A stretch of DNA of 64,000 nucleotides, from NCBI RefSeq assembly GCF_001677475.2, contig NZ_CP015229.1, one strand, 5' to 3'. The notes below the pieces were generated by a model that was given only the letters and a program-made list of their open reading frames with translations, ran no database searches and was not told the DNA's origin. Positions 57,144 through 57,462 of this stretch are shown here, in pieces (the stretch's first letter is position 1; each line of letters opens with the position of its first letter). Position numbers and translations under genes: made by a program. This DNA comes from Escherichia coli (GTDB taxonomy: Bacteria > Pseudomonadota > Gammaproteobacteria > Enterobacterales > Enterobacteriaceae).

Positions 57144-57370
57144 CAGGTCTCCTGGTCGGATTTAATCATTCCAACACCTTATATTTTTCACAAATTTGAG
57201 AGTTGAATCTCAAATCATATCAAAAATAGCTGTCAAGAGCACCCCAAGGAATAGTCCAAATCTGAAACTATGTCACGAGTTAACGATTCAGATTGGCGCT
57301 AAATCGCAGAAAATGTGGGGTTTATCGCAAAATTCAGCCGTTTTTTGCGCGCGATCGCTCCCCCTTGCTT

Positions 57371-57402
57371 CTCATCCTGTGGACTTACCGTTCAGGGATG
57401 AG
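57371..57402 (+). promoter_or_regulatory. candidate MalT boxes upstream of malS
   Basis: CTCATCC (reverse complement of GGATGAG) at 57371..57377 and GGGATGAG at 57395..57402, 60-90 bp upstream of the malS start; matches the GGA(T/G)GA MalT-box core. Confidence 0.45.
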
Positions 57403-57462
57403 TTTTGTCTGGCTTATCGCTGGCAAACTGTCTGAAATCGCAGCAATAAGGACTCATCCGCC

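Follow-up and report, generated by a model that had tools for sequence, protein, structure and literature searches.

The bax-malS intergenic region of Escherichia coli: a predicted MalT-dependent malS promoter with a three-box array

The intergenic region upstream of malS in the Escherichia coli window analysed here (the window being the whole 64-kb stretch of DNA, from whose first base all positions are counted) most probably contains a MalT-dependent promoter with the canonical three-box architecture of the maltose regulon, a reading of the sequence to which we give a probability of roughly 0.93. The MalT boxes of malS are an already known feature. That the gene belongs to the maltose regulon and depends on MalT has been known since 1986-1992, and the three-box architecture is textbook knowledge. 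The sequence-only reading had called the site ordinary biology, and the label is apt.

The queried region is part of an E. coli chromosome, and its neighbourhood in the window comprises xylH, xylR, bax, malS and avtA. The bax gene (56319-57143) is on the minus strand whereas malS (57463-59493) is on the plus strand, where it encodes a periplasmic alpha-amylase of 676 aa according to both the open reading frame list and the malS annotation in matching E. coli genomes. The two genes are separated by 319 bp (57144-57462). Their identity is confirmed by an 801-base query (56900-57700) that matches 5423 of the 5426 complete E. coli genomes with 95-99.5% identity. Six of the 319 intergenic positions differ from K-12 MG1655 (57278, 57321, 57352, 57361, 57391 and 57409), and K-12 coordinates are obtained by adding 3,680,034 to those of the window. 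The length of the intergenic region was found to be near-constant, at 313-320 bp, across about 25 genera. The span 57144-57462 had earlier been given as the location of a pair of MalT-box-like motifs; the motifs do lie inside it, but it corresponds to the whole intergenic region and not to the motifs themselves.

Two exact hexamers with the GGATGA core make up this pair, TCATCC at 57372-57377 and, after a gap of 18 bp, GGATGA at 57396-57401. The pair extends from 91 to 62 bp 5' of the malS ATG (57463), in agreement with the earlier description of opposed motifs about 20 bp apart and 60-90 bp upstream of the gene. The promoter-proximal hexamer, box 1, is on the plus strand within the extended sequence aGGGATGAGt, with a predicted centre at -37.5 and a 3' end at -35. 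It is oriented in the direction of malS transcription and occupies the place of the -35 element. Box 2 (57372-57377) is on the minus strand, where it reads GGATGA, and its predicted centre is near -61.5. A third and degenerate box, box 3 (57359-57364, minus strand, predicted centre about -74.5), was found exactly 13 bp 5' of box 2, with which it forms a direct repeat of 13-bp period as the distal member. The top strand of box 3 reads TCCCCC (GGGGGA on the minus strand) in the window strain, whereas K-12 and most genera have TCACCC, the difference lying at position 57361.

The extended -10 element TGGCAAACT (57421-57429, plus strand) consists of a TG at 57421-57422, one intervening base and the hexamer CAAACT at 57424-57429, and the spacing between box 1 and this hexamer is exactly 22 nt. 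The complete layout in the window is TCCCCC(57359)-N7-TCATCC(57372)-N18-GGATGA(57396)-N22-CAAACT(57424). The -10 element was located by its conservation across genera, as a consensus scan of 57000-57600 had returned no consensus sigma-70 promoter. The hexamer positioned 17 nt 5' of the -10 element is AGTTTT, which matches TTGACA at none of the six positions. This missing -35 element, together with the negative result of the consensus scan, is in line with an activator-dependent promoter. Transcription of malS is predicted to start at about 57436 on the plus strand (57435-57437, in a run of A residues; about 3737470 in K-12), seven nucleotides 3' of the -10 hexamer, with a 5' UTR that would measure about 27 nt. 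The box centres at -37.5, -61.5 and -74.5 are predictions as well, since they rest on the predicted -10 element. No entry for a malS start was found in the transcription start site supplements of the Shigella M90T paper or of Kim et al. 2012. A Shine-Dalgarno sequence, AAGGA, is located at 57448-57452 on the plus strand, 10 nt 5' of the ATG, and its AGGA is kept in the alignments.

Hexamers of the GGAKGA type are not enriched in the window, with forty-one occurrences against 49.6 expected. In 200 first-order Markov sequences simulated from the 64-kb window, an inverted TCMTCC-N8..22-GGAKGA pair was present in 23 (about 11%), and the inverted pair by itself is statistically weak. Both numbers speak for a reading in which the hexamers are there by chance while MalT acts on malS through sites elsewhere. 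The pair accompanied by a GGAKGA exactly 22 nt before CAnAnT was found in none of the 200 simulations, nor was the pair accompanied by a TCNNCC located 13 bp 5' of TCMTCC. The window contains a single instance of the full pattern, TCNNCC-N7-TCMTCC-N8..22-GGAKGA-N22-CANANT, at 57359-57429, and none of the 200 simulated sequences contains it.

A further exact hexamer, TCATCC at 57454-57459 (a GGATGA core on the minus strand), is positioned 3' of the malS Shine-Dalgarno sequence and 5' of the ATG. Only some Escherichia have it, and mutated versions are already seen in others, tcatct in locus L013 and tcattc in locus L020. We rejected it as a MalT site on account of this distribution, and on sequence comparison it is probably a chance occurrence. 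The copy is also an example of how an unconstrained hexamer can exist at this very locus, a point in favour of the chance reading for the other two. Neither this hexamer nor the degenerate box at 57359-57364 had been noticed in the sequence-only reading.

The evidence that decides between chance and a functional promoter comes from the malS genes of other enterobacteria. We sampled one malS locus per species, 80 in all, from about 25 enterobacterial genera, located the start codons and compared the upstream regions, the comparison covering 81 distinct sequences. In 77 of the 81 upstream regions, GGATGA or GGAGGA is followed after exactly 22 nt by CAAACT, CACACT or a close variant. This spacer between box 1 and the -10 hexamer is invariant in all of them; the remaining four carry one-base variants of either the box or the -10 hexamer. 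Of the 77 orthologues, 67 have CAAACT or CACACT as their -10 hexamer. Box 2 is TCATCC or TCCTCC and lies 17 or 18 bp from box 1 in most genera. At the position of box 3, TCACCC, TCATCC, TCAGCC or TCCCCC was observed in 72 of the 77 orthologues, with TCACCC occurring in most sequences and TCATCC in Enterobacter and some Citrobacter, and the alignment columns of this box are 90-99% conserved. Overall, the three boxes, TGGCAAACT and an A-rich patch just 3' of it show 70-99% conservation per column, the boxes and the -10 standing at 90-99% in the alignments, whereas the intervening spacers show 30-50%.

Such invariance of position and spacing in 77 of 81 orthologous regions, in which the flanking spacers diverge, stands against chance, as does the identical layout of all five MalT-dependent K-12 promoters described below. 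A motif scan also detected no GGAKGA between bax and malS beyond the pair and the copy at 57454-57459. The chance reading is effectively refuted by the conservation, and we consider its probability to be negligible. Because of this conservation and the identity with the malPp layout, it is very unlikely from the comparison that the mapped MalT sites of malS lie at other positions. The claim that malS is activated in a MalT-dependent manner is supported by four observations, namely the 22-nt spacing, the 13-bp repeat, the lack of a -35 hexamer and the conservation of the boxes across genera amid diverged sequence, all of which favour a MalT-dependent promoter.

The two hexamers were described earlier as an inverted pair. 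The opposite orientation is correct, but the motifs do not appear to constitute a symmetric site and are rather boxes 1 and 2 of a three-box array. TCATCC-N18-GGATGA is formally an inverted repeat, and it might be taken for a palindromic operator in which the half-sites are bound as one unit by a symmetric dimeric regulator, either MalT or another protein. A palindromic site does have a precedent in the MalT site of Actinoplanes sp. SE50/110 (PMC7567727). This motif, TCATCC-5 nt-GGATGA, resembles malS in having the same hexamer cores inverted and overlapping the -35 region, and differs from it in being a compact palindrome that acts as a single site at non-maltose genes (PMC7567727), whereas the gap in malS is 18 bp. 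Moreover, the gap between the hexamers of malS was found to vary, measuring 18 bp in the window, 17 bp in many genera and only 8 bp in Kluyvera, Trabulsiella and Pseudocitrobacter, a reduction by about one helical turn. A range of 8-18 bp argues against a fixed dimer, which would not tolerate it. The shorter gap was observed in L037, L039, L046, L052, L055 and L074 (Kluyvera group), L056 and L078 (Trabulsiella) and L060 (Pseudocitrobacter). The distance to the -10 element is fixed for the downstream box alone, box 2 has a conserved partner in direct repeat 13 bp further up, and the gaps in malKp and malZp differ again. A palindromic operator is on these grounds very improbable, and we retain the three-box MalT array as the preferred reading.

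Two side observations concern box 2. In the genera with the 8-bp gap, the shift of the distal repeat, seen in the region about 60-110 bp 5' of malS, leaves the boxes facing the same side of the helix. In addition, box 2 is represented by TCATCCTCC or TCCTCCTCC, which contain two MalT cores overlapping at a 3-bp offset, in L032, L044, L045, L047, L051 and L061 (Klebsiella) as well as in L081 and L055.

The two hexamers are complementary to each other, and this raises another interpretation in which they would pair as an RNA hairpin within a long malS 5' UTR and act post-transcriptionally. In Salmonella Typhi, a non-coding RNA termed malS-5'UTR is reported to affect bax, hisG and mgtC (cited in PMC8265627, PMC5963218 and PMC10373206). 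Pairing in RNA is, however, poorly compatible with the alignments, where the variable base K of box 1 and the variable base M of box 2 are complementary in 40 sequences and non-complementary in 28, showing no significant covariation (Fisher p=0.13). This absence of covariation fits two independent protein sites. Neither the sequence nor the length of the would-be loop is conserved, the predicted start at about 57436 lies 3' of both boxes, and a scan of 56900-57700 against Rfam gave no match at E<=1. An RNA hairpin formed by the boxes is, like chance, a reading to which we attach next to no probability, and the hexamers are best regarded as MalT boxes in DNA.

The control regions of malE-malK, malP and malZ in K-12 were scanned with the same pattern of box and -10 element. 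The proximal box is GGATGA in malP, GGAGGA in both malK and malE, and TGATGA, with one mismatch, in malZ; the respective -10 hexamers are CAAACT, CATAGT, GAAACT and CAAGGT, and 22 nt separate the two elements in each of the four. With malS included, five MalT-dependent promoters of K-12 have a box located 22 nt 5' of an nAnnnT hexamer. Upstream TCNNCC boxes of opposite orientation and 13-bp period were also observed, with gaps to the proximal box of 17 bp in malP, 18/21 bp in malK and 17/20 bp in malZ.

The malPp promoter has the layout TCATCC-13-TCCTCC-17-GGATGA-22-ctggCAAACT, which agrees with malS in the orientations of the boxes, the 13-bp repeat and the 22-nt spacer, and its extended -10 element is identical to that of malS. 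The differences are found in the gap between boxes 2 and 1 (17 bp in malPp, 18 bp in malS) and in the distal box, which is TCATCC in malPp and degenerate in malS (TCCCCC in the window, TCACCC in K-12). A further difference is the conserved CRP-like site situated about 115 bp 5' in malS; malPp is regarded as CRP-independent.

The malKp and malEp promoters resemble malS in the position of the proximal box (GGAGGA), 22 nt before the -10 element, in belonging to a divergent region and in having CRP-type sites upstream. The direct repeats upstream of malKp are opposite in orientation to the proximal box, as in malS. They occur in two overlapping registers with a 3-bp offset (gaps of 21 and 18 bp), whereas malS of E. 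coli has a single register; the overlapping TCATCCTCC registers in malS of Klebsiella are of the same kind as the overlap in K-12 malKp. Several CRP sites are present at malKp and a large nucleoprotein complex is formed there. The malZp promoter shares with malS the proximal box followed after 22 nt by the -10 hexamer and the upstream TCNNCC direct repeats of 13-bp period, and it differs in the degeneracy of its proximal box, which is exact in malS.

The direct-repeat MalT motif was reportedly described by Vidal-Ingigliardi et al. in 1991, and Danot and Raibaud are said to have reported the opposite orientation of proximal and distal MalT sites in 1993. The malS promoter itself was reportedly mapped by Schneider et al. 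in 1992. According to PMC7567727, which refers to Richet & Raibaud 1989, Vidal-Ingigliardi et al. 1991 and Boos & Shuman 1998, the MalT box is defined by the core GGA(T/G)GA within GGGGA(T/G)GAGG and its position overlaps the -35 region; the end of the box is placed there at about -34.5 to -35.5, with reference to Boos & Shuman 1998. Both the layout in the window and the spacing in the K-12 promoters agree with this published definition (PMC7567727). Regulation of malS by MalT is stated in PMC10223318 on the authority of Freundlieb & Boos 1986 and Schneider et al. 1992, and malS was down-regulated together with malEFG, malK-lamB-malM, malPQ and malZ in malT-mutant LTEE lines (PMC9645810). The MalT protein is a STAND ATPase that multimerises with maltotriose and ATP, binds MalT boxes cooperatively and recruits RNA polymerase (PMC4381067, PMC10427625).

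On this basis a mechanism can be proposed for malS. MalT with bound maltotriose and ATP would multimerise, and the multimer would bind cooperatively to boxes 3, 2 and 1, which are asymmetric sites. The two boxes in direct repeat and the single opposed box would together form the MalT array. The protomer on box 1, which ends at -35, would then substitute for the absent -35 hexamer, so that RNA polymerase could be recruited to the extended -10 element and open the promoter, with transcription expected to begin 27 nt 5' of the malS ATG. The occupancy of the boxes by MalT and the contribution of each box are what we infer from the arrangement.

The half of the intergenic region that is proximal to bax (57144-57277) was found to be 90-99% conserved per column in about 25 genera, which is above the conservation of the malS promoter. 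The minus strand of this half carries a predicted promoter and leader of baxL-bax. The baxL reading frame (57143-57169, minus strand; K-12 b4794) is an upstream ORF of eight codons, MIKSDQET, whose stop codon overlaps the bax ATG in the sequence TGATG. It is annotated in K-12 and absent from the annotation of a PGAP-annotated E. coli strain. Codons 4-8 of baxL and the bax Shine-Dalgarno sequence (ATCCGACCAGGAGACCT) are near-invariant in their nucleotides whereas codons 2-3 are variable, and the baxL ATG is missing in the sequences of Cedecea sulfonylureivorans (L068), Buttiauxella (L071) and Dryocola (L077).

An extended -10 element for bax, TGaTATGAT, is conserved on the minus strand from 57222 to 57214, with TGnTATAAT observed in several genera, and points to a putative baxL-bax start at about 57208. 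We had considered TGaCATAGT (the reverse complement of 57267-57275) as the extended -10 element of bax, with CRP at -61.5. This candidate was dropped after the multi-genus comparison because only GTGACA is conserved there and the TGnTAtnAT at 57222 to 57214 is far better conserved. The first 22 nt of the predicted leader (57212 to 57191, minus strand) may form a hairpin of 8 bp with the arms AUUUGAGA and UCUCAAAU. When this helix was specified by hand, 76.8% of the cells were paired, while slid controls reached 53% at most. Compensatory changes are present in some genera, with 12 cells having changed on both sides, and the covariation support for the hairpin from the alignment is moderate. The 5' hairpin was not predicted by RNAalifold on the bax leader. 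A premature termination site has been described in the baxL-bax leader, which is also a CspD target (PMC9765468, PMC11648934). Further upstream, between about -37 and -69 relative to the putative bax start, a conserved block GTGACAtagTTTCaGAttTGGACTATTcC (57245-57277, minus strand) matched no known consensus; it looks like a candidate binding region for a regulator.

A CRP-like site, TGTGGggtttaTCGCA, is situated at 57314-57329 with no strand assigned. Its centre, 57321.5, corresponds to about -114.5 when counted from the predicted start of malS and to about -113.5 when counted from the putative start of baxL-bax, near-midway between the two divergent predicted starts. The sequence matches the CRP consensus TGTGA-N6-TCACA at eight of ten positions, a degree of match that the window contains 25 times, against 25.4 expected by chance. 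Its half-sites, AAATGTG and TATCGCA, are conserved across genera, and malS is listed as one of the known targets of CRP that genomic SELEX recovered (PMC3105977). Because of this conserved site further upstream, MalT may not be the sole input to the malS promoter.

A broader and rather unlikely proposal is that the bax-malS intergenic region constitutes one bidirectional control unit, in which the two promoters would share the CRP-like site and the geometry of the MalT array would be limited by helical phase. The helical-phase constraint is suggested by the two spacing classes, 17-18 bp and 8 bp, between boxes 2 and 1. This proposal would leave the identity of the MalT boxes unchanged.

The significance of these results is mainly one of annotation quality, as exact coordinates are now given for the three boxes, the extended -10 element and the predicted start. 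For the enterobacterial malS promoters as a group, the comparison of about 25 genera indicates which features are constrained, namely the 22-nt spacing between box and -10 element and the 13-bp repeat, and which is free, namely the gap between boxes 2 and 1. Should the intergenic region indeed act as a bidirectional unit, the CRP-like site could couple the catabolite control of malS to the conserved leader of baxL-bax.
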